In this document: positions 938-13,805 of the stretch, in pieces
How positions within the stretch are numbered: the stretch's first letter is position 1
Layout of the letters: the number at the start of each line of letters is the position of its first letter
Assembly (NCBI GenBank): GCA_964550955.1
Contig: CAZKAF010000003.1
Location: 7,489-71,488 of the forward strand
DNA length: 64,000 nucleotides
Direction: 5' to 3'
Origin: an uncultured Candidatus Saccharibacteria bacterium
GTDB taxonomy: Bacteria; Patescibacteriota; Minisyncoccia; Phycocordibacterales; CAIZLB01
Position numbers and translations under genes: made by a program
Notes under the pieces: model-generated
What the model was told of the DNA's origin: nothing
Database searches by the model: none
What the model saw: the letters and a program-made list of their open reading frames with translations, nothing else

Positions 938-1222
938 TTAGACTGATAAGACCGCCTGGACGTAAAAGAGCGTCGTTATCAGGGAAAGAAAGATCGATCC
1001 CGCCAGGAAGGCGATGGCTATCTTTTTCGGCTGGCCGCTGACGCCGAAGCGGATAAGATGATAGAGAATAAAGAAGGCCGCGGTCCAGTAAATGAGCATC
1101 GCGAGCGTGAAGACGAAAGTTAAGAGGCTCGTAGTGCTCGCCAGCGAAGATGTTTCTGAAAGAAGTTCAAGCGTCGGATTGTTCATACGTTTAAAGTATA
1201 TCAAATGGTATACTTTAGTCAT
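938..1222 (-). CDS. small hydrophobic membrane protein, hypothetical
   Basis: 94 aa ORF with multiple TM-like stretches; no recognisable family. Confidence 0.3.
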   Translation of the reverse strand: MTKVYHLIYFKRMNNPTLELLSETSSLASTTSLLTFVFTLAMLIYWTAAFFILYHLIRFGVSGQPKKIAIAFLAGSIFLSLITTLFYVQAVLSV

Positions 1223-1229
1223 TCAGATT

Positions 1230-2330
1230 ATGTCTCAATCTGCGTTAGAAAAAATAATACAGACCGCCCTGCTCGTTCTGACCCCGCTTTGCGTCGGCAT
1301 ATTCGGCACCTATTTTGCAATGTATTTCATACGGCCGCCTGTCATTCAAAATGCATTCGCCCTGGAAATGGAGGATGAGACCGACATTCCGGACGTGCCC
1401 CTTGTAGGAAGGCTGGATTTGTCCGAAGCGTCATCTTCGGCCGAAGCTGAGATGCTGTCCTTGGAAAACATAGGCGAAGAGCATCTCGGAACGACAACTG
1501 AAATGCAGGGCGCGCCGTCATCGGCGCCAGCTGCCTCCTTGTCAGCCTCCGCCACATCTACGGCGGCATCCGCTTCGACGCCTGCGCCAAAGGCCGCGAC
1601 CTCCACGACGGCAGCCTCGCCTGCGGTTTCTGCTGCCATTGGTCCCGTGCTTCCGGCTTCAGCCCCTTCGTCCGCGCAGTCTTCACAGCCATCTTCTTCG
1701 ACTCCTCAGGTTCAGCCCGCTTCGACCGGCTTCAAGCTCAATGTCCCGTATTTTGCGCAGCAGTATGTGAACAGCTGCGAAGCCGCCGCGCTCCGCATGG
1801 CGCTGGCCTTCAAGGGCGTCTTGAAAAATTCTGACATAGAGATAATAAGCGCGATGGGATATAACCCGAGGCCGAAGGATACCGTGAACAACATCTGGGA
1901 TGATCCGCAAGAAATGTACGTCGGCGAAGTCGATGTCGTTGATATCTCGAAAGGGTATGGCGTTTATGGAAAGCCGGTCGCAAAAGCCGCTCAGGCCTTT
2001 GGAAGGCAGGCGGAATATACGAACTCCATGACCGCATCAAGAATGGCGCGGGAAATCAGCAACGGAAACCCTGTCATCTTATGGGGATACACGAGCCTGA
2101 CGGGCGAGCCTTATACGTGGACTACGCCGGCCGGGAAGACGGTCAAGGCTTTCAGGGGCGAGCATGCCCGCGTGGTGGTTGGGTTTGAGGGAACAATCGA
2201 GAACCCGACGGGCTTCTACGTTCATGACTCGACGACGGGCAAGCAGAACCAGTATTGGAGCTCCAATGTCCTGATGGCCCAGTTCCATGCGATTCCCGAA
2301 GTTACGAATCAGGCGGTCATAGTCAGATAG
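1230..2330 (+). CDS. membrane-anchored peptidase C39-like domain protein with Ser/Ala/Thr/Pro-rich linker
   Basis: start moved to the ATG at 1230 (MSQSALEK) to avoid overlap with the upstream minus-strand gene; N-terminal TM; low-complexity S/A/T/P linker (nt ~1540-1720); C-terminal VPYFAQQYVNSCEAAALRMAL...FYVHDS resembles the Peptidase_C39_2 Q/C...H/D arrangement. Confidence 0.5.
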   Translation: MSQSALEKIIQTALLVLTPLCVGIFGTYFAMYFIRPPVIQNAFALEMEDETDIPDVPLVGRLDLSEASSSAEAEMLSLENIGEEHLGTTTEMQGAPSSAPAASLSASATSTAASASTPAPKAATSTTAASPAVSAAIGPVLPASAPSSAQSSQPSSSTPQVQPASTGFKLNVPYFAQQYVNSCEAAALRMALAFKGVLKNSDIEIISAMGYNPRPKDTVNNIWDDPQEMYVGEVDVVDISKGYGVYGKPVAKAAQAFGRQAEYTNSMTASRMAREISNGNPVILWGYTSLTGEPYTWTTPAGKTVKAFRGEHARVVVGFEGTIENPTGFYVHDSTTGKQNQYWSSNVLMAQFHAIPEVTNQAVIVR

Positions 2331-2625: not shown

Positions 2626-3099
2626 CTAAAAGCCAAAGTATTCGAGAATCTTCTGTCCAAGCGGTTCCGGGTGGTGGTCTTCGAGCAGGTTGTCGAGCAG
2701 GAAATCTCGCACGTCGTCCGGGTCTATGCCGTCGAGGGGAATGGCGATGAGGGGAACGATGGCCTTCCTCGATTTTACGATAAGCTTTGAGGGGGTGCCT
2801 ATGTGACGATTGTCCTCAACCCAGAAAGAGTCGAGCGTCGCGTACGGATACAGCGTCCGCTCGATCATGATGCCTTTCTTGCTGACTTCGAACCGGACGA
2901 CGTGAGGCCGCTTCGAGGCGAAGAGGGCCAGGGCGAACGTGCTGATGAGAATGAGGAGCGCAAAGAGCGTGTCGCCGAAAATCATCGCGAGAATCGCGAT
3001 CGAAATGCCGATGATGCCGACCACCCAGTACCAGTCAGATGTCTTCTCTTGGAAATAGTATTCCTCCGTTTCCCAAATGAAAGGATCTTTTTTTGCCAT
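2626..3099 (-). CDS. hypothetical membrane protein
   Basis: 157 aa, two central TM helices; no family recognised. Confidence 0.4.
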   Translation of the reverse strand: MAKKDPFIWETEEYYFQEKTSDWYWVVGIIGISIAILAMIFGDTLFALLILISTFALALFASKRPHVVRFEVSKKGIMIERTLYPYATLDSFWVEDNRHIGTPSKLIVKSRKAIVPLIAIPLDGIDPDDVRDFLLDNLLEDHHPEPLGQKILEYFGF

Positions 3100-3162
3100 G
3101 CAGATATTCTACCATATAAATAAATTTGTTAAGCGGGAACCGCCTGGCGGAACTGGGATTAG

Positions 3163-3750
3163 CTAGTCCTTAAAAACTTCCTGCTTGCTGGGATTGAAAA
3201 ACACGAAATACATTGCTGCCACGGACGACAAGGCTATGATGACAGCGCCTGTCCAAAAAGCTATGCCTGCGATATGCGGGGTGTATTGAAGCAGGTCCAG
3301 CCGCGTCAAGATATAATTCCAGTCATGAATGGCCGCGTCGCCCCCGAGCAAGGGAAGCTCTTTCGCGGCGGCATCCCTGATGTAAAGCGACGCGTTCACG
3401 ATGCTCTGTCCCGTCCAAAGGGATATGATCGATCCTGAATAGTAGTCTCCTCTGGCAATAAAATAGAGCGCCACGAAGACCGGTATGCCTATCTGAAAAA
3501 TAGTTCCGCCGAGCACCGACATGAAGTCTCCGAAGATGAAAAATATTGAGTGCCCGGCTTCATGGAACATCAGATTTGCGGCATCCAGGACAAAGCCCGT
3601 TTCGGGATTGACGGCATATGAGAAGAAATAGGCCGCAAGAAATAAGGTTGCGAGTCCTTGTATGGCGGCAAACAAAAATTCAAGAGGCTTTTTCATTGTC
3701 TTTAGTATATTGCCTAAGCCGAGTTTATTCAAACTGCCCTGGTCGGGCAT
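3163..3750 (-). CDS. polytopic membrane protein with HExxH (HEAGH) motif, putative membrane metalloprotease-like
   Basis: 195 aa (start could be the internal MKKPLEF); several TM segments; HEAGH lies inside a hydrophobic segment. Confidence 0.35.
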   Translation of the reverse strand: MPDQGSLNKLGLGNILKTMKKPLEFLFAAIQGLATLFLAAYFFSYAVNPETGFVLDAANLMFHEAGHSIFFIFGDFMSVLGGTIFQIGIPVFVALYFIARGDYYSGSIISLWTGQSIVNASLYIRDAAAKELPLLGGDAAIHDWNYILTRLDLLQYTPHIAGIAFWTGAVIIALSSVAAMYFVFFNPSKQEVFKD

Positions 3751-3764
3751 CTAATATGTATGAT

Positions 3765-3804
3765 GGAAAATAAAAAGCACCGGCAGGTTCGAACCTGCCG
3801 GTGC
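3765..3804 (-). terminator. rho-independent terminator (minus strand) after the 3856-4812 gene
   Basis: perfect hairpin gcaccggcagg-ttcgaa-cctgccggtgc, followed on the minus strand by a T-run; a second hairpin ccgagcaatcc...ggattgctcgg lies just upstream. Confidence 0.65.
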
Positions 3805-3855
3805 TGAATTTCCGAGCAATCCGAGCAATCCTCGGATTGCTCGGGCCGCTCGTCG

Positions 3856-4812
3856 TCACTTCGCCTTGACCCAGCTGTCCTTGTCGCATAGCGCGACGAA
3901 GGCAGGGAACGGTGATGTTCCTTTGGTTCGGATTATCACCATGAACTTCTCCTTGATCGCATATGCGGGAGGAGCCATTCCTCTGGTACGAAACACGACG
4001 GCCGAGCTTGCCTCGATGCCTGCTTCGCTCAGGTTAAGCTTGACGAACTTGAGCGCCTCGTCCACGGAGAAGGCGGGCGACGCCATTCCTTCGAGAAACG
4101 AGATGTCAATCTCTTTCTCGAAGGCGACCTTTGGAATTATCACCGCCGAAAACTTGCCGCTGATTTCGCTTGGCTTGAGGTCGGTGAGAACCTCGTTTCC
4201 AAGCGAGAGCAGTTCCTTGTCTTCGGAAATTTCTCCCTGATACTCGGTGATGAAGATTTCCCAGTCTTGCGACAGGGGCTTCATCTCAAAGACGGGCTTG
4301 TCATGCTTGGGTGACGAATGAACGCCTCCCAATTTATCAAAGCTCATTTTTGCCGCGGCGAACATGTCGTCCCCGACTTTTGTCTCGCTGGCCGCGCCTG
4401 GGACCTCCCAAGCGAGCTTGAGGTCAAAGACTGCCGCGACCGAACGGTCTCCGCTCGGCCGGACCCAGAAGCCTTTCGTTTTCAGCCACTCGTTGATGGC
4501 CGCTCCGCTTCCGGCTTTTCCTTCAAGCGCCCCCGAGTCTTTCATCGCCTTGATCCATTGAGGAGTTTCCTCGGAAGAATAGGCTTTGAAGAACTCGGCT
4601 TGCGCGGCATTCATCTGAACCCCGTCAAGGGCAGGGAATGCCTGGCTTGTAGCCTCAAGTACTGCCGGGAGGCAGTACGCTCTTGTATTCTGCGCCTGGA
4701 CATTGCCAAGGCAGAAGATATTAATGATCATGGTTACGGCTGCAAGAGATGCAGCCCTGACTTTGATGTTTTGGTATGCCCTCATGGGACCAGATATACG
4801 AAACATGTTCAT
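3856..4812 (-). CDS. secreted protein, serpin-like (possible serine protease inhibitor)
   Basis: signal-peptide-like N-terminus; C-terminal segment SEAGIEASSAVV...FMVIIRTKGTSPFPAFVAL resembles the serpin hinge/RCL and C-terminal strand; protein is shorter than typical serpins. Confidence 0.35.
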   Translation of the reverse strand: MNMFRISGPMRAYQNIKVRAASLAAVTMIINIFCLGNVQAQNTRAYCLPAVLEATSQAFPALDGVQMNAAQAEFFKAYSSEETPQWIKAMKDSGALEGKAGSGAAINEWLKTKGFWVRPSGDRSVAAVFDLKLAWEVPGAASETKVGDDMFAAAKMSFDKLGGVHSSPKHDKPVFEMKPLSQDWEIFITEYQGEISEDKELLSLGNEVLTDLKPSEISGKFSAVIIPKVAFEKEIDISFLEGMASPAFSVDEALKFVKLNLSEAGIEASSAVVFRTRGMAPPAYAIKEKFMVIIRTKGTSPFPAFVALCDKDSWVKAK

Positions 4813-4946
4813 ATGGCTAGTGCCATGAGGGATGAAACTCTATTATATATAATATCATATATTTACATATATGTCAATGTAGAATGGGGGTCTTAGGCGC
4901 TTTGCCGTGGCGTACCGAGCGGCGGAACATGACTCGCATCAGGCTC

Positions 4947-5648
4947 TCAGGAAGCGGCCTTTCTTAAGGACAGATACATTCTGATTTTGGCTATTCCTAC
5001 CGCAAAGCTGATTGCCGCGACTATGGCTATTGATGCGTACCCCTCCCGGTTTGAAACGTCATTGATGTTTATAAAAAGAGGAATGATGAACGCGACGGCT
5101 CCCACGAACAGGGTCGCGCAGAATCTTACCCAAAGAGACGAGATGAAAACTTTGAACGGATTGCCTCCCTCGACGATCTGGGCGACTTCGTAACTGGCCC
5201 TGAAGGCGGGGAACCATGTCGTCCATATTCGATGGCTTACACGGTAATCCTCATTTTCTTCCAGCCTGATTATCTTTTTTCTGTATATTTTTGCCAAATA
5301 TATGTTGATGATTCCCGAGATGCTCCAGCCGATGAAGATAAGGAATATCGTGATGAGGGAAACAAGCATTCCTTTCGTTTGAGATATGATTGCCAACAGC
5401 AAGACCAGGCTTGCGCCGGGGAAAAAGCTGCCGATAAAGTACAGCCCCTCGATGAGTATTGAAAAGAAAGCTGCCAGATAAATATACTGGTCATCTATAG
5501 TGCCTAAGAAACTGATTAGGACTTCGAGGCCTGGAATGTTTGCGTTTTGAGATATTAAAATGCCATAAATCGACAAAGCCAGGCCTGACAGCATCCAGAT
5601 GATGCCGGAATATAAGACGCCTTTTGCTTTGTTGTGTTCGACGCTCAT
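4947..5648 (-). CDS. DedA/VTT-family membrane protein
   Basis: 233 aa polytopic; LAAFFSILIEGLYFIGSFFPGASLV motif typical of DedA (SNARE-associated) proteins. Confidence 0.45.
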   Translation of the reverse strand: MSVEHNKAKGVLYSGIIWMLSGLALSIYGILISQNANIPGLEVLISFLGTIDDQYIYLAAFFSILIEGLYFIGSFFPGASLVLLLAIISQTKGMLVSLITIFLIFIGWSISGIINIYLAKIYRKKIIRLEENEDYRVSHRIWTTWFPAFRASYEVAQIVEGGNPFKVFISSLWVRFCATLFVGAVAFIIPLFININDVSNREGYASIAIVAAISFAVGIAKIRMYLSLRKAAS

Positions 5649-5778
5649 GGTTTCTTGGCAGGGATATTATACCGCAGAAAGGCGCGGCTGCTTGAGGGAT
5701 TTCGAGAGAGGGTAAGGCGGGTGCGGTCTAAATTTGTCTCAGTTCAGTCTTAATTTAGACGAAAGACTTCTATATGTT

Positions 5779-5890
5779 ACCGGGATTTCGCTTTTTCTGA
5801 AATAAATGCAATTTCCCGGTTAAATCTGCCAAAATAACCTTTAAACACACCGGGAATTATGGTAAATTGCAAAAAATACCAAATCCCGGT
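5779..5890. promoter_or_regulatory. two tandem 42-bp units, each ACCGGGA-N28-TCCCGGT; candidate operator sites upstream of the HATPase/STAS operon
   Basis: accggg at 5779-5784 pairs with cccggt at 5815-5820; a second unit has accggg at 5849-5854 and cccggt at 5885-5890; ends 15 bp before the 5905 ATG. Confidence 0.35.
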
Positions 5891-5904
5891 AGTATCTAAG
5901 GCAC

Positions 5905-6864
5905 ATGCGGATACATATACCCAACAGCGCCTTCCTGGGCAATATAGATTCTTTTCTAAGAGGATTCGATCCTGCTAATCCTAATATCTTGGAATTGACT
6001 GCAAATAAAAGCTGGATTCATGTTCACCCGGTCGTATTGACCATGCTTGCCTCACTCGGTCTTAATGTTTCAAGGGTAGTGTGTGAGAAAATAGAGGCTC
6101 GCTCAGGACATTATTTGGAAAGAATGGGTCTGTTTAATGCTCTTGGGGTTGATTCGGGTATCATTGTTACGGAACACGAGCCGTCGGGACGGTTCATTCC
6201 GCTGACCTTTATCAAGAATCCGAACGAGTTGGCGGGTTTTATAAAGGAAATGATACCTTTATTGCATCTTGAGCCGAGACAGGCTCAACCTATACAGTAC
6301 ATAGTTAGCGAACTTGTAAGGAATGTTTTGGAACATTCTCAAGCAGAGCATGGCGCGGTTGTTGCTGCCCAATACTTTGCAAAAAGCAATACTATACGGA
6401 TAGGCATCACCGATGTCGGCGTGGGAATTCGACGAACAATCAGCCGCTCGCACAAGGCCGATTCAGATACGGAAGCGCTAAGGCTTGCTTTGACGCCAGG
6501 TGTTACGGGCACTACGCCAAAAGAAGGGGGCACTGAATTCAATGCAGGCGCTGGTCTCTTCTTCATCAAGTCTGTTGCGAATGTGAACAGGGGCTTCTTC
6601 ATGATATACAGCGGATCATCCATGTATAAATTGCTGAAAAGAGATTCGAAGTCCAAGCATTTCGCTCTGGAAGCTGACCCGTTCGAAGACAGGCACTCAA
6701 AGTCTTCCGATCTTCCATACTGGCAAGGTACGGCCGTGGGGATAGACATTCCATTGGATACGACGGAAGACTTTTCAAAATTACTCGATTTAATAAGGGA
6801 AACCTACTCTCATGCAGTCAAGGCGAGAAAGAAAGAGAGGTATAAAGGGCCTCAATTCATATGA
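5905..6864 (+). CDS. GHKL-superfamily ATP-binding protein (HATPase_c), anti-sigma/RsbW-like kinase candidate
   Basis: N-box-like ELVRNVLEHS and G1-box-like GITDVGVGIRRTI; 319 aa; stop overlaps the next gene's start (ATGA). Confidence 0.5.
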   Translation: MRIHIPNSAFLGNIDSFLRGFDPANPNILELTANKSWIHVHPVVLTMLASLGLNVSRVVCEKIEARSGHYLERMGLFNALGVDSGIIVTEHEPSGRFIPLTFIKNPNELAGFIKEMIPLLHLEPRQAQPIQYIVSELVRNVLEHSQAEHGAVVAAQYFAKSNTIRIGITDVGVGIRRTISRSHKADSDTEALRLALTPGVTGTTPKEGGTEFNAGAGLFFIKSVANVNRGFFMIYSGSSMYKLLKRDSKSKHFALEADPFEDRHSKSSDLPYWQGTAVGIDIPLDTTEDFSKLLDLIRETYSHAVKARKKERYKGPQFI

Positions 6865-7151
6865 TTACAATTAATTTATTCGAAGAAGTCGGCAGCTTTG
6901 CGGAGGATAAGGATAAGGCGAGAGAAATCCGTCTCGGCATCCTAATGCCTTCAATCAAGGATGGGAAGGAAATAGTTCTTGATTTCAACAAAGTTGATTC
7001 GGCGACGCAATCTTTCGTCCACGCACTCATTAGTGATGTAATCAGGGTGCACGGCATCGATGTCTTGGAAAAGCTCTTTTTCAAGAACTGTACGGATACC
7101 GTTAAGAAGATTATAAATATCGTTGTTGAGTACATGGTCGAGAGTCAGTAA
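6861..7151 (+). CDS. small STAS-like protein (DUF4325-type), anti-anti-sigma-like partner
   Basis: 96 aa; EIVLDFNKVDSATQSFVHALI... matches the STAS-like DUF4325 pattern usually found next to HATPase ATP-binding proteins; translationally coupled. Confidence 0.45.
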   Translation: MITINLFEEVGSFAEDKDKAREIRLGILMPSIKDGKEIVLDFNKVDSATQSFVHALISDVIRVHGIDVLEKLFFKNCTDTVKKIINIVVEYMVESQ

Positions 7152-7227
7152 GGGATTTGGAAAGGTGAAAAAAAGGAGATGAGATGCTTGCAATCTCACA
7201 AGTCTTTCCGCGGGCATAAAAACAAAA

Positions 7228-7257
7228 ACCGCCCTTGCGGGCAGTCCTTGTTTTTAT
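7228..7257 (-). terminator. terminator hairpin flanking tRNA-Ser
   Basis: ccgcccttgcgggcag hairpin with an A-run on plus / T-run on minus. Confidence 0.5.
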
Positions 7258-7260
7258 GTG

Positions 7261-7347
7261 CGGAGGAGGTGAGATTCGAACTCACGGGCCCCGTAAAGGG
7301 CCTTCTGTTTTCAAGACAGACGCATTCGACCACTCTGCCACTCCTCC
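7261..7347 (-). tRNA. tRNA-Ser (anticodon TGA)
   Basis: reverse complement folds: acceptor ggaggag, anticodon stem tctgt/acaga with loop ctTGAaa, long variable arm aggccctttacggggccc, T-arm gtgag-ttcgaat-ctcac. Confidence 0.75.
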
Positions 7348-7427
7348 GAGTAAGACTATATATCAAAGCTGGCATTTTTTCAACTTTTTGACATACTGAG
7401 GACGAGAGCGCCAAAAAGCTTCTATTT

Positions 7428-7841
7428 ATGAGATATCTTGGAATCGACTACGGATCAAAAAGGATAGGCTTGGCATTGTCCGACGAGTCGGCTTTCTTTG
7501 CGTTTCCGAAAGGGGTCATCGAAAGCTCCAGGAATGCGGCCAATGAAATAAAGGCCATATGCCGGAAAGAGGGCATCTCGGAGGCGGTGGTCGGGGAGTC
7601 CAGAAACTTCAAGGGGCAGGAGAATTTGATAATGACCGATACGAAGAGGTTCGTGTCCGAGCTCGAAGCTCTCGGCCTTACGGTCATATACGAGCCGGAA
7701 ATATTCTCGACCGTGCAGGCCCAGCAGATACAGGGCGACAGCAAGGACCTGGACGCGTCAGCTGCTGCCGTAATCCTTCAAAGCTATCTTGACCGACTCA
7801 GGTTCAGGTCAGCCGGGGAGGCCGCGGCGGATGCAGAATAA
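7428..7841 (+). CDS. ruvX: Holliday-junction resolvase-like putative pre-16S rRNA nuclease YqgF/RuvX
   Basis: MRYLGIDYGSKRIGLALSD N-terminus is the RuvX signature; 137 aa. Confidence 0.8.
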   Translation: MRYLGIDYGSKRIGLALSDESAFFAFPKGVIESSRNAANEIKAICRKEGISEAVVGESRNFKGQENLIMTDTKRFVSELEALGLTVIYEPEIFSTVQAQQIQGDSKDLDASAAAVILQSYLDRLRFRSAGEAAADAE

Positions 7842-11494: not shown

Positions 11495-12298
11495 TTATTT
11501 GCTTATTGCCGACGATTCCCAGCACATATTGAAGATGGTCTTCATCATGTTGTGGATTTTCTCATCCTCTATGATCGTGCCGATCGCATTTGATTTGGAG
11601 AAATTTACGATCGAAACTTTGCTCTTTCCGTATACGACAATTTCTCCGGTCATGGGAAACGCGTCTTTGGAGGCAAATCTTATGTCAGGCCAAATGCTCT
11701 TTCTAATGTCCCCATAACGGATGTCGTTGAATTGCCGGCCTTCAGGCGTGTCCGGCGTGATTCCTCTGGTGGTTATCCCGATTCTCTCCTTGCCTTTCAC
11801 ATAGTCGTCAAAGAATGTCTTTGGCAGAAACTCTCTCAATTCCGAAGTATCAGCCCAGGCGAGCATTTCATATGGCTTGCTTGTCGCCAGATGGTCTTCG
11901 TAGATGGTCGTTATCCCTTCCACTCCCTCGTAATAGGTAATTTTTGGCTTATCTCCAAGCAATCCATGAAGCTCGTTGATTTCGGGAATTATAGACTTGG
12001 CCGTATCCAATGATTCTTCCGCCTGCTTTACCTTGTTCTCGGCATATTTGATAAATCGGTCCGGCTTCTCAACCTGATAAAACAGCTTGTTCTTCTTTTC
12101 GATTTCATTTACCAATCCGCGAATAGAAAGGTTAAGGAGGATTTTGTACACAGTGCTTCTATTCAGCCCTGAATACTCGGCTATTTTAGAAGGGTAGGCT
12201 CCTCCGAGCTCCAAAAGAGCTAGGTACACAAGGGCTTCTTTGTCAGAAAAGCCGGTCTTTTCCAATTTTCTGAGGAATAAAGGGTTTTTTATATTCAT
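11495..12298 (-). CDS. TrmB-family HTH transcriptional regulator (paralog 1 of 5)
   Basis: start at ATG 12298 (MNIKNPLF); N-terminal LEKTGFSDKEALVYLALLELGGAYPSKIAEYSGLNRSTVYKIL matches the TrmB winged-HTH domain; divergent from SBP gene. Confidence 0.65.
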   Translation of the reverse strand: MNIKNPLFLRKLEKTGFSDKEALVYLALLELGGAYPSKIAEYSGLNRSTVYKILLNLSIRGLVNEIEKKNKLFYQVEKPDRFIKYAENKVKQAEESLDTAKSIIPEINELHGLLGDKPKITYYEGVEGITTIYEDHLATSKPYEMLAWADTSELREFLPKTFFDDYVKGKERIGITTRGITPDTPEGRQFNDIRYGDIRKSIWPDIRFASKDAFPMTGEIVVYGKSKVSIVNFSKSNAIGTIIEDEKIHNMMKTIFNMCWESSAISK

Positions 12299-12311
12299 GC
12301 TCTTTAACCAG

Positions 12312-12341
12312 ATTATACCGAACGGCAGCATTTTTTGTCAA
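12312..12341 (-). promoter_or_regulatory. consensus sigma70-like promoter for TrmB paralog 1 (TTGACA-N18-TATAAT)
   Basis: minus-strand reading gives TTGACA (plus 12336-12341) then an 18-nt spacer then TATAAT (plus 12312-12317), with the ATG 13 nt downstream. Confidence 0.4.
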
Positions 12342-12398
12342 CATCAACGAACAAAATATGTATTATATCAGATATATGTCTATAAATAAGCGTCTTTC

Positions 12399-12425
12399 GT
12401 GTTTATACTGTCACAGTATAAACAC
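12399..12425. promoter_or_regulatory. 27-bp perfect palindrome GTGTTTATACTGT-C-ACAGTATAAACAC, candidate TrmB operator
   Basis: perfect dyad symmetry in the divergent intergenic region between the TrmB and SBP genes. Confidence 0.4.
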
Positions 12426-12689
12426 AAGTAAGAAAATGTGTGTCATAGTTATTTCAGAATTTAAACAAGTTCTTAAGCAACCAGCAAAAGACAATCAATT
12501 TGCGGATATGGCCGTATTACGGGGCATGGCGATATGTCCGCTTGGTTACTGGAGTCGGTCTAAAAATCTCCCTGTCTCGGAATGCATGTTCCGACTGAAG
12601 AGCTCGAGAGGGCGAAACAGAGAATCTTGCTGACAAGATCAGCCAAGATAAAAGAGTAGAAGCATTATCAATTATTATTAAATTTACAA

Positions 12690-13805
12690 ATGAATAAAAC
12701 AATCAAGGTAGTCATGGGCATTATTGCGGTCATTCTTGTCGCTTGGTGCGTCGCTTCAGTTGCCGCGAAGAAGAATCCTGAGACAAGGCCGACAGTCAGG
12801 ATCGGTGTCACCCTTCCTCTTACGGGGGACGTGGCGATGCTCGGTCAAAATAGTCGACAGGCTCTGCTTCTTGCCCGGGAACAGTTGCCCAAGAACACCA
12901 AATACAATTACGAATTTGTATTCGAAGACGACCAGTTCAGGCCTCAGGCCGGAGCATCTGCTGCCAATAAGCTTATTAGCATAGATAATGTCTCGGCTCT
13001 CTTCTCATTCGGTTCGCCTGTCGGAAACGCGGTAAGCCCGATTGCAGAAAAGGCAAAGGTTCCTCACATCAACTTTTTCGCCTCTGACATGAATGTGGCA
13101 AACGGAGATTACAACTTCGTAAATTACACTCCTCCCTACAAGGATTCGGAGATGTTTATCAAGGAATTGAACAAGCGAGGGGTGAAGACGGTCGCGTTCT
13201 TCGGTCAACAGGATAATCCTGGGGTAGGGGCAATCATAGCTGCCTTTGAGAACGATATCAAGAATACCGATATCAAGGTTCTTTCTAACCAGAAGTTCAA
13301 TACCGGCTCTCGAGATTTTCGAACTCAGATTGCGGCCGTGAAGAATCTCAATCCCGATATCTACGTTCTTGAGGCAACTTCTCCGGAACTGGAAATTCTC
13401 ACCAAGCAGCTTCGTGAGGCGGGAATTCAAACGCCTGTTACCTCGATGGAAGCGTTTGAATTTTCTTCCGAACTCTCATTGTTTGAGGGAATGTGGTATG
13501 TAAATGCTGCGGATCCTCAGCAGTGGTTCGTGAATCTCTTTGCAAAAAGATACCCTAACGACACTCCGAAGTTCGGCGCGGCAAACGGATATGATTCGTT
13601 GAATCTTATTGTCCGGGCCGCAGAAGAAATAGGGGACGGAAAGACCGTTCCTACTCGAGAAGAAATCAGGGATGCCCTCTCCAAAATCAAGGGATTTGAC
13701 GGCGCGCTCGGCAACAACCTAAGCGTCGACGAACATGGAGTCGTGGTATCTGGCGCCGTCGTTCGAGAAATCAGGAATGGAAGTCCCGTGACAATCAGCA
13801 AATAA
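12690..13805 (+). CDS. ABC transporter substrate-binding protein, LivK/Peripla_BP_6 family (SBP paralog 1)
   Basis: signal/TM N-terminus; RIGVTLPLTGDVAMLGQNSRQALLLAREQL...FEDDQFRPQAGASAANKLIS follows the LivK-type architecture. Confidence 0.7.
   Translation: MNKTIKVVMGIIAVILVAWCVASVAAKKNPETRPTVRIGVTLPLTGDVAMLGQNSRQALLLAREQLPKNTKYNYEFVFEDDQFRPQAGASAANKLISIDNVSALFSFGSPVGNAVSPIAEKAKVPHINFFASDMNVANGDYNFVNYTPPYKDSEMFIKELNKRGVKTVAFFGQQDNPGVGAIIAAFENDIKNTDIKVLSNQKFNTGSRDFRTQIAAVKNLNPDIYVLEATSPELEILTKQLREAGIQTPVTSMEAFEFSSELSLFEGMWYVNAADPQQWFVNLFAKRYPNDTPKFGAANGYDSLNLIVRAAEEIGDGKTVPTREEIRDALSKIKGFDGALGNNLSVDEHGVVVSGAVVREIRNGSPVTISK

Follow-up and report, generated by a model that had tools for sequence, protein, structure and literature searches.

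A putative minimal kinase–STAS cassette of the CapK/CapS–VapK/VapS kind with a candidate operator built into its promoter

A two-gene cassette of ~1.4 kb, composed of an operator-promoter region, gene A and gene B, lies on contig CAZKAF010000003.1 of an uncultured Candidatus Saccharibacteria bacterium, within a 64,000-nt stretch that was analysed as a whole and is called the window here; all window coordinates are relative to its first letter. An earlier reading of this DNA (the original prediction) had described A as a kinase-like protein with GHKL N-box and G1-box, B as its 96-aa STAS-like partner of the DUF4325 type, and two tandem 42-bp inverted repeats in front of them as binding sites of a dimeric regulator. 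Both open reading frames (ORFs) were found where they had been predicted (Table 1), with the stop codon of A and the start codon of B overlapping as ATGA. The GC content dips to ~42–47% at the A–B pair, compared with ~50–55% in the flanks, and an Rfam scan of positions 5400–7500 gave a tRNA-Ser gene as its sole match. For comparison, 24 genome loci and 80 metagenome loci were retrieved (104 in total, 99 of them unique).

Protein A carries the motifs ELVRNVLEHS (N-box) and DVGVGI (G1), as had been noted originally, and its residues E136, N140, H144, D170, G172, G174, G215 and G217 are each present in 99 of 99 homologs. In the Pfam search of both proteins B gave a clear match, whereas HATPase_c (E 4e-5) and HATPase_c_2 (E 7e-5) were found in residues 121–225 of A just under the gathering score; for A the assignment is confirmed by the fold. 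The AlphaFold2 model of A (42 homologs; predicted local distance difference test score, pLDDT, 82; predicted template modelling score, pTM, 0.86) consists of three parts, namely an N-terminal α/β domain (residues 1–120), a Bergerat-fold domain and a long C-terminal helix (residues 290–311). The best Foldseek matches of this model are Topo VI-B, sacsin SR1, ParE, Hsp90 and SpoIIAB. PDB sequence searches that started from A, from its profile or from the profile of the N-terminal domain gave nothing useful. The N-terminal ~120 residues had been described as having no recognisable domain; Pfam has indeed no match there, but the region folds in the model as β-α-β-α-β-α-β-α and can be aligned through intermediates with the STAS-like domain of VapK (see below). 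Its residues W37, H41, P42, Y70, R96, F97 and P99 are invariant or nearly so in the homolog alignment (W37 and R96 each in 98 of 99 homologs). No homology between this domain and B was detected by hhalign. The protein ends with a basic C-terminal helix and tail of ~34 residues with the consensus KAVKERKKARYRRPRFI.

Protein B is a bare STAS-like domain of 96 aa with an isoelectric point (pI) of 5.1, and DUF4325 (Pfam E 4e-13), the family originally proposed for it, is the only domain found in it. Thr49 is present in 95 and Ser51 in 94 of 96 homologs, so that the sequence T49-Q50-S51 is practically invariant. The start of STAS helix α2 is where the phospho-acceptor lies in SpoIIAA, CapS and VapS; when the B-like domain of protein P0252 is modelled (pLDDT 94–97), Q50 is the first residue of helix α2. 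Structural matches of this model are weak (all with E > 0.3) and are mainly STAS domains (4xs5, SLC26/SULTR STAS, RsbV, SiaC). The N-box helix of A (YIVSELVRNVLEH, window 6298–6345, residues 132–147) and helix α2 of B (TQSFVHALISDVIR, window 7005–7046, residues 49–62) are alike, and MAFFT repeatedly aligned B there; this likeness is probably a coincidence.

The prediction that the kinase-like protein and the STAS-like protein form a pair is borne out by the comparison of loci. Gene B follows directly after A in all 24 genome loci and in 101 of the 104 loci overall, mostly with the ATGA overlap. Natural fusions of A with DUF4325 are represented by P0363, P0367, P0373, P0376 and phrog_5816, and one DrmA profile of PADLOC (PDLC02567) contains the same two parts as its N-terminal module. 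These fused GHKL-DUF4325 proteins contain the same domains in the same order within a single chain, they are ~30–36% identical to A, and P0363 retains the B motif ATQSF.HAL. The natural fusions confirm that A and B work together, and along with the DrmA profile they show that different effectors can be joined to the module. In PDLC02567 (1,750 positions) A matches positions 76–254 and B positions 329–390, and there the kinase–STAS module is joined to a ~1,400-residue helicase-type effector. DrmA of DISARM is a large protein with a helicase domain, encoded in one operon with DrmB, DrmC and a methylase. Since only positions 76–390 are covered by A–B, and no helicase lies nearby, the pair is not a component of DISARM. 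Another apparent A–B fusion, P0252 (JGI, 451 aa), was rejected as a frameshift pseudo-fusion, in which the residues after LPYW are junk (ERHGRRHRRKRR...) until the frame of B is entered; it is not Rosetta-stone evidence.

The original prediction stated that the pair has no assigned function. This is outdated, as Chambers et al. (EMBO J 2026, PMC13373217) have characterised VapK/VapS and CapK/CapS, the relatives nearest to it. CapK is composed of helix-turn-helix (HTH), STAS and GHKL domains, is switched on by single-stranded DNA (ssDNA) and phosphorylates Ser54 of CapS. CapS, a repressor with STAS and winged HTH (wHTH) domains, binds narrow (1-bp) and wide (10-bp) palindromes made of one half-site and leaves both upon phosphorylation; the capKS pair controls the operon downstream of capS (PMC13373217). 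For VapK (STAS and GHKL domains), phospho-mimetic and mutant data led to the proposal that it phosphorylates VapS at Ser48, and VapS (a STAS domain with a C-terminal helix) is the antitoxin of the VapC nuclease in the anti-phage vapKSC operon; VapC is released by the S48E substitution (PMC13373217).

The VapK and VapS sequences were taken from the AlphaFold 3 file in the supplement of the abovementioned paper. The A profile aligns with VapK over 133 columns (A 133–285, VapK 153–291) with 31% identity (hhalign 96.7%, E 3.3e-10; BLASTP E 3e-11), and this match is far stronger than the generic match of A to HATPase_c. The B profile aligns with VapS (hhalign 75.6%, E 2.4e-5) up to residue 90 of 116, and it weakly matches PDB entry 9Z7O, 'Escherichia VapS' (E 0.022); CapS gave no match with this profile in PDB. 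Ser48 of VapS falls at Q50 of B, between T49 and S51, i.e. the pair carries invariant Ser/Thr at this position, and N140 of A (99 of 99) is the counterpart of the catalytic Asn of CapK (PMC13373217). The conserved phospho-acceptor position in the STAS partner and the N-box Asn are thus shared with CapK/CapS as well. The N-terminal domain of A could be related to VapK by way of the intermediates P0277 and P0384, which align to VapK from residues 26–28. In an alignment of 30 sequences F54-L-R-P57 of VapK stands opposite W37-I-H-V-H-P42 of A, with VapK F54 falling at H39, two residues off W37 and before the Pro common to both, so that W37 is an aromatic residue near the F54 position (VapK F54 and CapK W68 are the conserved aromatic residues of the ssDNA groove); LKQNTFCSKLG and SHTNPGHAIP of VapK stand opposite LERMGLFNALG and EHEPSGRFIP of A, respectively. 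It is therefore probable that the N-terminal part of A is a STAS-like sensor domain of the VapK type and a candidate ssDNA-sensing region.

Judging from these comparisons, A and B make up a minimal member of the CapK/CapS–VapK/VapS kind of kinase–substrate pairs. With VapK/VapS they share the small STAS gene placed directly after the kinase gene and the two-domain plan of the kinase, GHKL with a probable STAS-like domain and no HTH. The differences are considerable. The cassette has neither the VapC/PIN gene of VapKSC nor any other third gene; B (96 aa compared with 116 aa) ends after the STAS domain and lacks the C-terminal helix which blocks VapC, while A has the additional basic C-terminal helix of ~34 residues. 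Unlike VapK/VapS, the A–B cassette has a conserved operator upstream of the kinase gene and is also found in archaea and in bacteria of the candidate phyla radiation (CPR), mostly outside defence islands.

This operator is represented in the window by ACCGGGA-N28-TCCCGGT, which occurs at 5779–5820 and 5849–5890, exactly where the two inverted repeats had been reported. These are the only two matches in 64 kb, and there were no matches in 100 dinucleotide-preserving shuffles. The 160 nt located 5' of A were scanned in the 99 unique loci with the pattern ACCNGG/CCNGGT. A half-site is present in 95 of the 99; the 295 sites (among them 241 of ACCGGGA, 35 of ACCAGGA and 8 of ACCTGGA) correspond to ~19 per kb, as compared with 0.6 per kb elsewhere in the same loci. 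The repeats thus belong to this operon, as had been supposed, and are not a generic genome repeat. The modal position of the forward site is −53 to −57 and that of the CCCGGT core start is −17 to −21 from the ATG. Most relatives possess two compact 15-bp palindromes ACCGGGAWTCCCGGT flanking the −35 box. In the bacterial layout the first palindrome (O1, ACCGGGAWTCCCGGT) is followed by TTGACA, ~3 nt and the second palindrome (O2), the last T of which opens the −10 box (GGTATAAT or GGTAAAAT); in most bacterial loci ATAAT or AAAAT comes after GGT. The outer half-sites of loci with two full palindromes are always 28 bp apart. Additional half-site arrays are located further upstream in L005, L008 and L022.

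The window has a reduced version of this layout (Table 1). Its proximal pair aligns base for base with O1, −35 and O2 of L010, the right half of O1 being decayed to ATTATGGT and the left half of O2 to ACCAAA. The same arrangement, F-N28-R with the outer half-sites only, was found in L075, L088 and L104. The two 70-bp units of the window share 35 of 70 bases, mostly those of the half-sites, and the distal unit seems to have arisen by duplication of the proximal one and to have diverged since. As the outer half-sites are 28 bp apart both in the window and in the two-palindrome loci, the 42-bp unit is a pair of half-sites bracketing the −35 box and not the site of a single dimer; the meaningful element is the half-site of 7–9 bp. 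The idea of 42-bp sites for a dimeric regulator is hence retained in part: the elements are real, recurrent and placed as cis-regulatory elements, but they are not one operator per dimer, and most relatives have two compact palindromes instead.

Table 1. Coordinates of the cassette, its elements and neighbouring genes in the window.
Feature	Position	Strand	Remarks
Distal half-site, forward, ACCGGGA	5779–5785	+	−126 from ATG
Distal half-site, reverse, TCCCGGT	5814–5820	+	−90 from ATG; spaced 28 bp from the forward site; TTAAAT, by sequence a weak −10-like hexamer, comes next
Proximal half-site, forward, ACCGGGA	5849–5855	+	−56 from ATG; left half of O1, in register with O1 of L010
−35-like hexamer TTGCAA	5867–5872	+	Read from sequence; aligned with TTGACA of homologous loci
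Proximal half-site, reverse, TCCCGGT	5884–5890	+	Right half of O2, within the −35/−10 spacer; CCCGGT core at −20
−10-like hexamer TAGTAT	5890–5895	+	First T is the last half-site base; 17 bp after −35, 9 nt before ATG
Gene A	5905–6864	+	ORF of 319 aa
A, N-terminal α/β domain, aa 1–120	5905–6264	+	AlphaFold2 secondary structure, conservation, bridged alignment to VapK STAS domain
A, GHKL (Bergerat-fold) kinase/ATPase domain, aa 121–288	6265–6768	+	Pfam, Foldseek, hhalign to VapK; N-box, G1 and G2 residues 99/99
A, C-terminal amphipathic helix and basic tail, aa 289–319 (pI 9.9), with stop codon	6769–6864	+	AlphaFold2 model, comparison with VapK
Gene B	6861–7151	+	ORF of 96 aa
tRNA-Ser(UGA)	7260–7347	−	108 nt beyond B; 3' boundary of the insert, outside the cassette
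TrmB-like regulator gene	11495–12331	−	Pfam label borrowed from syntenic contig L001
Periplasmic-binding-protein gene	12690–13805		Borders a GC dip

The core promoter differs between the hosts. [quoted passage not shown] One archaeal layout consists of a single palindrome, ~8 nt, TTTATAAA, ~12 nt and a single half-site ending 3–5 nt before the ATG; in the other a palindrome is combined with a TATA box ~42 nt before the ATG. A half-site that is combined with two unrelated transcription machineries cannot be a core promoter element of either of them, and the inverted repeats most probably represent a cassette-specific cis-regulatory operator. In the bacterial layout the ATG is most commonly located 11 nt after the half-site (27 loci), so that transcription is predicted to begin at the start codon or right beside it. 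Both the bacterial and the archaeal layouts would imply a leaderless mRNA; for the window, a transcript with no leader or almost none is implied by the −10-like TAGTAT, from which the ATG is only 9 nt away. Within 150 nt 3' of B half-sites occur in 13 of 96 loci, with ~9 expected from the background density, i.e. they are not enriched there.

The logic of the cassette is common with that of CapK/CapS: a kinase–substrate pair, predicted autoregulation of the promoter via palindromes, and one half-site used at two spacings, which are 1 bp and 10 bp for CapS and 1 bp and 28 bp here. However, the sites of CapS are found in the capK–capS interval and downstream of capS, and the A–B sites all lie upstream of the kinase gene. 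The N-terminal HTH of CapK and the C-terminal wHTH by which CapS reads TTAA half-sites have no equivalent in A or B. In contrast to capKS, no regulated operon follows the A–B cassette; downstream are unrelated housekeeping genes or tRNAs, often convergent.

The cassette is widespread. A word-indexed search gave 3,118 homologs of A, the best 120 of which are all of ~320 aa and 64–69% identical; where named, the sources of these 120 are Nanoarchaeota, Woesearchaeota, Aenigmarchaeota, Diapherotrites, many CPR/Patescibacteria lineages, Deltaproteobacteria, Elusimicrobiota and others. Among representatives clustered at 50% identity, 2,452 homologs of A were obtained at E < 1e-3 when the search was exhaustive. 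Across the 99 unique loci, from DPANN archaea, CPR bacteria, Proteobacteria, Chlamydiae and others, A and B are ~65% identical, and the archaeal cassettes are ~60–69% identical. Such identity between DPANN archaea, CPR and ordinary bacteria points to frequent cross-domain transfer and to a function without any host-specific partner; the cassette appears to have been transferred widely, its patchy distribution being driven by horizontal gene transfer (HGT). The usual context is a solo insertion between unrelated housekeeping genes, for example between SecDF/BacA/tetratricopeptide repeat (TPR) genes and FtsK, between alcohol dehydrogenase and fumarase, between an extracytoplasmic function (ECF) sigma factor and TPR/CsgG genes, or next to ruvX as in the window. 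All-against-all clustering of the flanking ORFs of 25 loci revealed no third conserved gene and no sigma factor or phosphatase that is kept, and a motif search 3' of B revealed no conserved boundary motif. In 5 of 83 loci, with ~1.2 expected, the 300 nt on the 3' side of B include a tRNA or tmRNA gene, which is a mild hint of island-like integration. In L072 the ORF immediately 3' of B, starting with MAGLYKRGKLWYVKYS, presumably resembles the N-terminus of a tyrosine integrase, and this locus is one of the few with a putative mobility gene beside the cassette.

The original prediction also held that the pair recurs in accessory and defence-like contexts. For the present clade, which stands alone between housekeeping genes, this does not apply; it is true only of a sister clade and of distant relatives. 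A sister-clade cassette in L144 (~42% identical to A) lies beside a SacI-type restriction enzyme, a DNA methylase, Vsr and a DDE transposase. In L145 (790–4256) the sister-clade kinase gene begins 13 nt after a 227-aa ORF, which in turn follows a reverse-transcriptase (RVT_1) gene; it may be a reverse-transcriptase-associated defence operon that has recruited the kinase–STAS module. A distant relative in L141 (2806–3995; Streptococcus phage phiGBSVK-D and ~6 related prophages) consists of a 298-aa 'ATPase-like' protein and an overlapping 99-aa protein; with an integrase-family gene on one side and paratox on the other, it occupies the prophage end, a typical moron/defence position. One more relative, on a small Acinetobacter plasmid, adjoins BrnTA. 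A search of plasmids for vapKSC with a VapS fragment gave just one degenerate Leptotrichia locus.

The question then arises of which protein reads the operator. Neither a third gene nor a hidden ORF is conserved (just 23 of 96 loci have an ORF of 80 aa or more antisense to B), so the reader is most likely encoded by the cassette itself, as A and/or B, and A may be regarded as the first candidate. Natural variants give some hints. In L070, of otherwise standard archaeal-type layout, all three half-sites are ACCGAGGA/TCCTCG. Among the columns kept in 93% or more of the loci, this locus has a single non-conservative change, G95D, which falls beside R96 in the N-terminal domain of A; its B differs at conserved columns by L69I only, and the C-terminal tail of A is ordinary. 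In L144 a perfect 19-bp palindrome TCTCGGTTGgCAACCGAGA (2970–2988) occupies the same promoter-proximal position and ends 13 nt before the ATG. Taken together, the variants of L070 and L144 suggest that operator and protein co-diverge; they are hints only as to the reader, since the sample is too small to map the determinant. A comparison of the half-site forms CCCGG and CCWGG with the residues of A and B revealed no discriminating column, and many loci mix both forms. The C-terminal tail of A was rejected as a specificity determinant, as it is unremarkable in the operator-variant loci L070, L025 and L024.

The findings are best explained by a self-contained minimal cassette of the CapK/CapS–VapK/VapS type with an autoregulated mechanism, to which we assign a probability of roughly 0.6. 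The homology to VapK/VapS, the intact ATP-binding motifs, the invariant acceptor position, the translational coupling of the genes, the conserved half-sites with their placement over the core promoter, the leaderless geometry and the spread across domains are results of the comparisons made here. By analogy with the characterised systems we infer the activation by ssDNA, the phosphorylation of B, the repression and the identity of the DNA-touching protein. In unstressed cells A and B, singly or as a complex, would sit on the ACCGGGA/TCCCGGT half-sites around and within the core promoter and keep the operon repressed. ssDNA originating from DNA damage or phage infection would bind in the groove between the STAS-like and GHKL domains of A (the region of W37) and thus activate the kinase. 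The active A would then phosphorylate T49 or S51 of B at the start of helix α2; phosphorylation would alter the partnerships of B, the repressing complex would be released and the cassette induced. The operator would be read by a cassette-encoded protein, and the core promoter alone would depend on the host (−35/−10 in bacteria and TATA box in archaea). If only the core promoter differs between hosts, the unit becomes portable across domains of life. The output might be the activated kinase, or B in its freed or phosphorylated form, acting on host or phage targets in the manner of a toxin–antitoxin (TA) or abortive-infection system. This is a guess, and the most plausible one in view of the solo, addiction-like distribution of the cassette and of the antitoxin role of VapS.

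Several observations weigh against this explanation. Scans with domain libraries detected no HTH, ribbon-helix-helix or other DNA-binding domain in A or B. B in particular has no wHTH comparable with that of CapS, and B is acidic, A being the basic partner. It is possible that a host factor may read the operator. The N-terminal domain of A, compared directly with residues 1–150 of VapK, gives no significant match (hhalign 0.2%, Smith-Waterman z 0.5). The promoter candidate of the window has weak hexamers, which match 8 of 12 consensus positions and stay below the scan threshold of 9 of 12. The model of the pseudo-fusion P0252 has a pTM of 0.48, and its A–B docking was discarded. Finally, no partner or effector for B is encoded in the cassette, which makes any reading of the output guesswork.

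The cassette might instead be a strict TA or addiction module, where A would be a toxic kinase or ATPase, B its proteic antitoxin, and the A–B complex would autoregulate by conditional cooperativity with no dedicated sensing of DNA damage; the cassette would then persist and spread because its loss is harmful. We consider this unlikely, and it overlaps the preferred explanation more than it excludes it. It is in agreement with the solo two-gene cassette, the overlapping genes, the palindromic operators in its own promoter and the insertion between unrelated housekeeping genes in many phyla at ~65% identity. Type II TA modules are alike in their two-gene co-translated cassettes, in patchy HGT distribution and in autoregulation, which for A–B is inferred from the operator placement, but their antitoxins have a DNA-binding domain, and no canonical one is detectable in A or B. 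DUF4325/VapS is an experimentally shown antitoxin of the VapC toxin (PMC13373217), the PIN.4 group of VapC is coupled to DUF4325 genes (PMC5499597), and the abovementioned plasmid relative lies beside a TA system, BrnTA. B, however, is devoid of the C-terminal tail by which VapS inhibits VapC, and the conservation of W37 (98 of 99) in the candidate ssDNA-sensing region argues for signal sensing rather than simple addiction. To our knowledge, GHKL kinases are not among known toxins. The partner switching of RsbW/RsbV, with which the pair had originally been compared, or of SpoIIAB/SpoIIAA would make A an anti-sigma kinase holding a host sigma factor and B its antagonist. These systems have the same pairing of a Bergerat-fold Ser kinase with a STAS antagonist and the same N-box form E-x3-N-x3-H. 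The fold of A matches SpoIIAB (1tid, 1thn, 1l0o; template modelling score to the target 0.5–0.63), there is a weak NCBIfam match to spIIAB (E 1.3e-3), homologs are labelled 'anti-sigma regulatory factor' by JGI, and an ECF sigma gene lies upstream in one locus. Nevertheless the sequence similarity to SpoIIAB/RsbW is marginal and A is much nearer to VapK; A is about twice the size of an anti-sigma kinase and has the additional sensor and C-terminal domains. In the vicinity of the cassette no gene of a sigma factor or PP2C phosphatase is kept, and ~60–69% identical cassettes with archaeal-type promoters occur in archaea, which have no sigma factors. These last two points disfavour the anti-sigma reading, and with it the analogy to RsbW/RsbV, to a degree that makes it most improbable.

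The two remaining explanations concern the DNA around the genes. The repeats might serve recombination or mobility, as attC- or MITE-like sites, or be generic repeats carried along by the cassette, which is clearly mobile yet encodes no recombinase; the tRNA/tmRNA genes in 5 of 83 loci and the integrase-like ORF of L072 would fit this. Mobility sites would hardly be confined to the 5' side, as the half-sites are, nor would their register to −35/−10 or TATA and to the start codon be fixed within a few bases, and the window has no further instance of the arrangement. A scan of 2.9 million viral contigs for the 17-mer palindrome TACCGGGAWTCCCGGTA gave 29 matches, with ~28 expected by chance (a rough estimate for 16 specified bases and an assumed ~60 Gb), and none of them lies beside an A or B homolog; the scan is otherwise uninformative. 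We consider such a role of the repeats very unlikely. Several viral matches have the form of a terminator-like hairpin or are placed between a capsid and a tail gene. In three related IMG/VR phage contigs (L027 at 3461, L036 at 3057 and L045 at 12933) an exact TACCGGGAWTCCCGGTA stands between a gene of ~297 aa and the next gene, with a tail-like gene of ~360–380 aa just downstream of it and no A or B homolog near; this could represent a conserved hairpin or terminator, or else an unrelated regulator may bind there. It was also considered that the cassette could act in cis on a neighbour, in the way capKS controls the operon downstream of capS (PMC13373217). In the window ruvX and the following genes, downstream beyond the tRNA, or the tRNA itself would be the candidates. 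Such control would be highly improbable, since the downstream genes differ from locus to locus and are often convergent (the window tRNA-Ser and the fumarase gene of L138 are both on the minus strand), there is no recurring downstream gene family, and neither half-site enrichment nor a conserved motif was found 3' of B.

Beyond the preferred explanation, that of the self-contained cassette, a further step may be proposed, which is doubtful. A–B could be a free-living sensor and effector that crosses domains, with a novel sort of sequence-specific DNA reader devoid of HTH, for ACCGGGA/TCCCGGT in Bacteria as well as Archaea, and with the ssDNA-activated kinase itself as the output through phosphorylation of host or phage proteins. 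The reader could be the STAS-like domain of A, its basic C-terminal helix or a composite A–B surface. If this were true, the cassette would be the smallest complete module known that responds to DNA damage or phages, and an ancestor-like building block of CapKS, VapKSC and the DrmA fusions.

The kinase–STAS kind itself has already been published; new here are the minimal autonomous variant, its conservation across domains and the re-fitting of the promoter around one operator. CapK/CapS and VapK/VapS are known only as accessories, as regulator of an immune operon and as trigger of VapC, and the A–B pair indicates that such a pair also exists as a unit of its own. That a single operator goes together with a leaderless mRNA and, depending on the host, with a sigma-70 or a TATA-box core promoter would be a clear natural example of how a cassette is re-fitted across domains. 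The apparent autoregulation in the absence of a canonical DNA-binding domain points to a DNA-recognition surface that is as yet undescribed. A–B would also be a simple two-protein system for the study of ssDNA-activated GHKL kinases.

The neighbourhood of the pair in the window is repeated in two Logan contigs. On the 3' side, beyond the tRNA-Ser, it comprises ruvX, a gene of a tRNA-binding protein and pilMN. Directly upstream of the cassette four consecutive ORFs of 157, 195, 318 and 233 aa, which have no Pfam match, occupy positions 2626–5648 on the minus strand and are kept in these two Logan contigs, which are of the same organism; transcription of the 233-aa ORF is divergent from the cassette promoter region. 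Farther downstream, at 12000–12750, there is a sharp GC dip to ~37% between the genes of the TrmB-like regulator and the periplasmic-binding protein (Table 1). The Peptidase_C39_2 gene (window 1092–2330; L001 2172–3272) encodes 412 aa in the window and in L002 and is called as 366 aa in L001, and the 185-aa bPH_2 gene upstream of it, together with its neighbour, is slightly different between the contigs. These differences suggest strain-level variation near the cassette.

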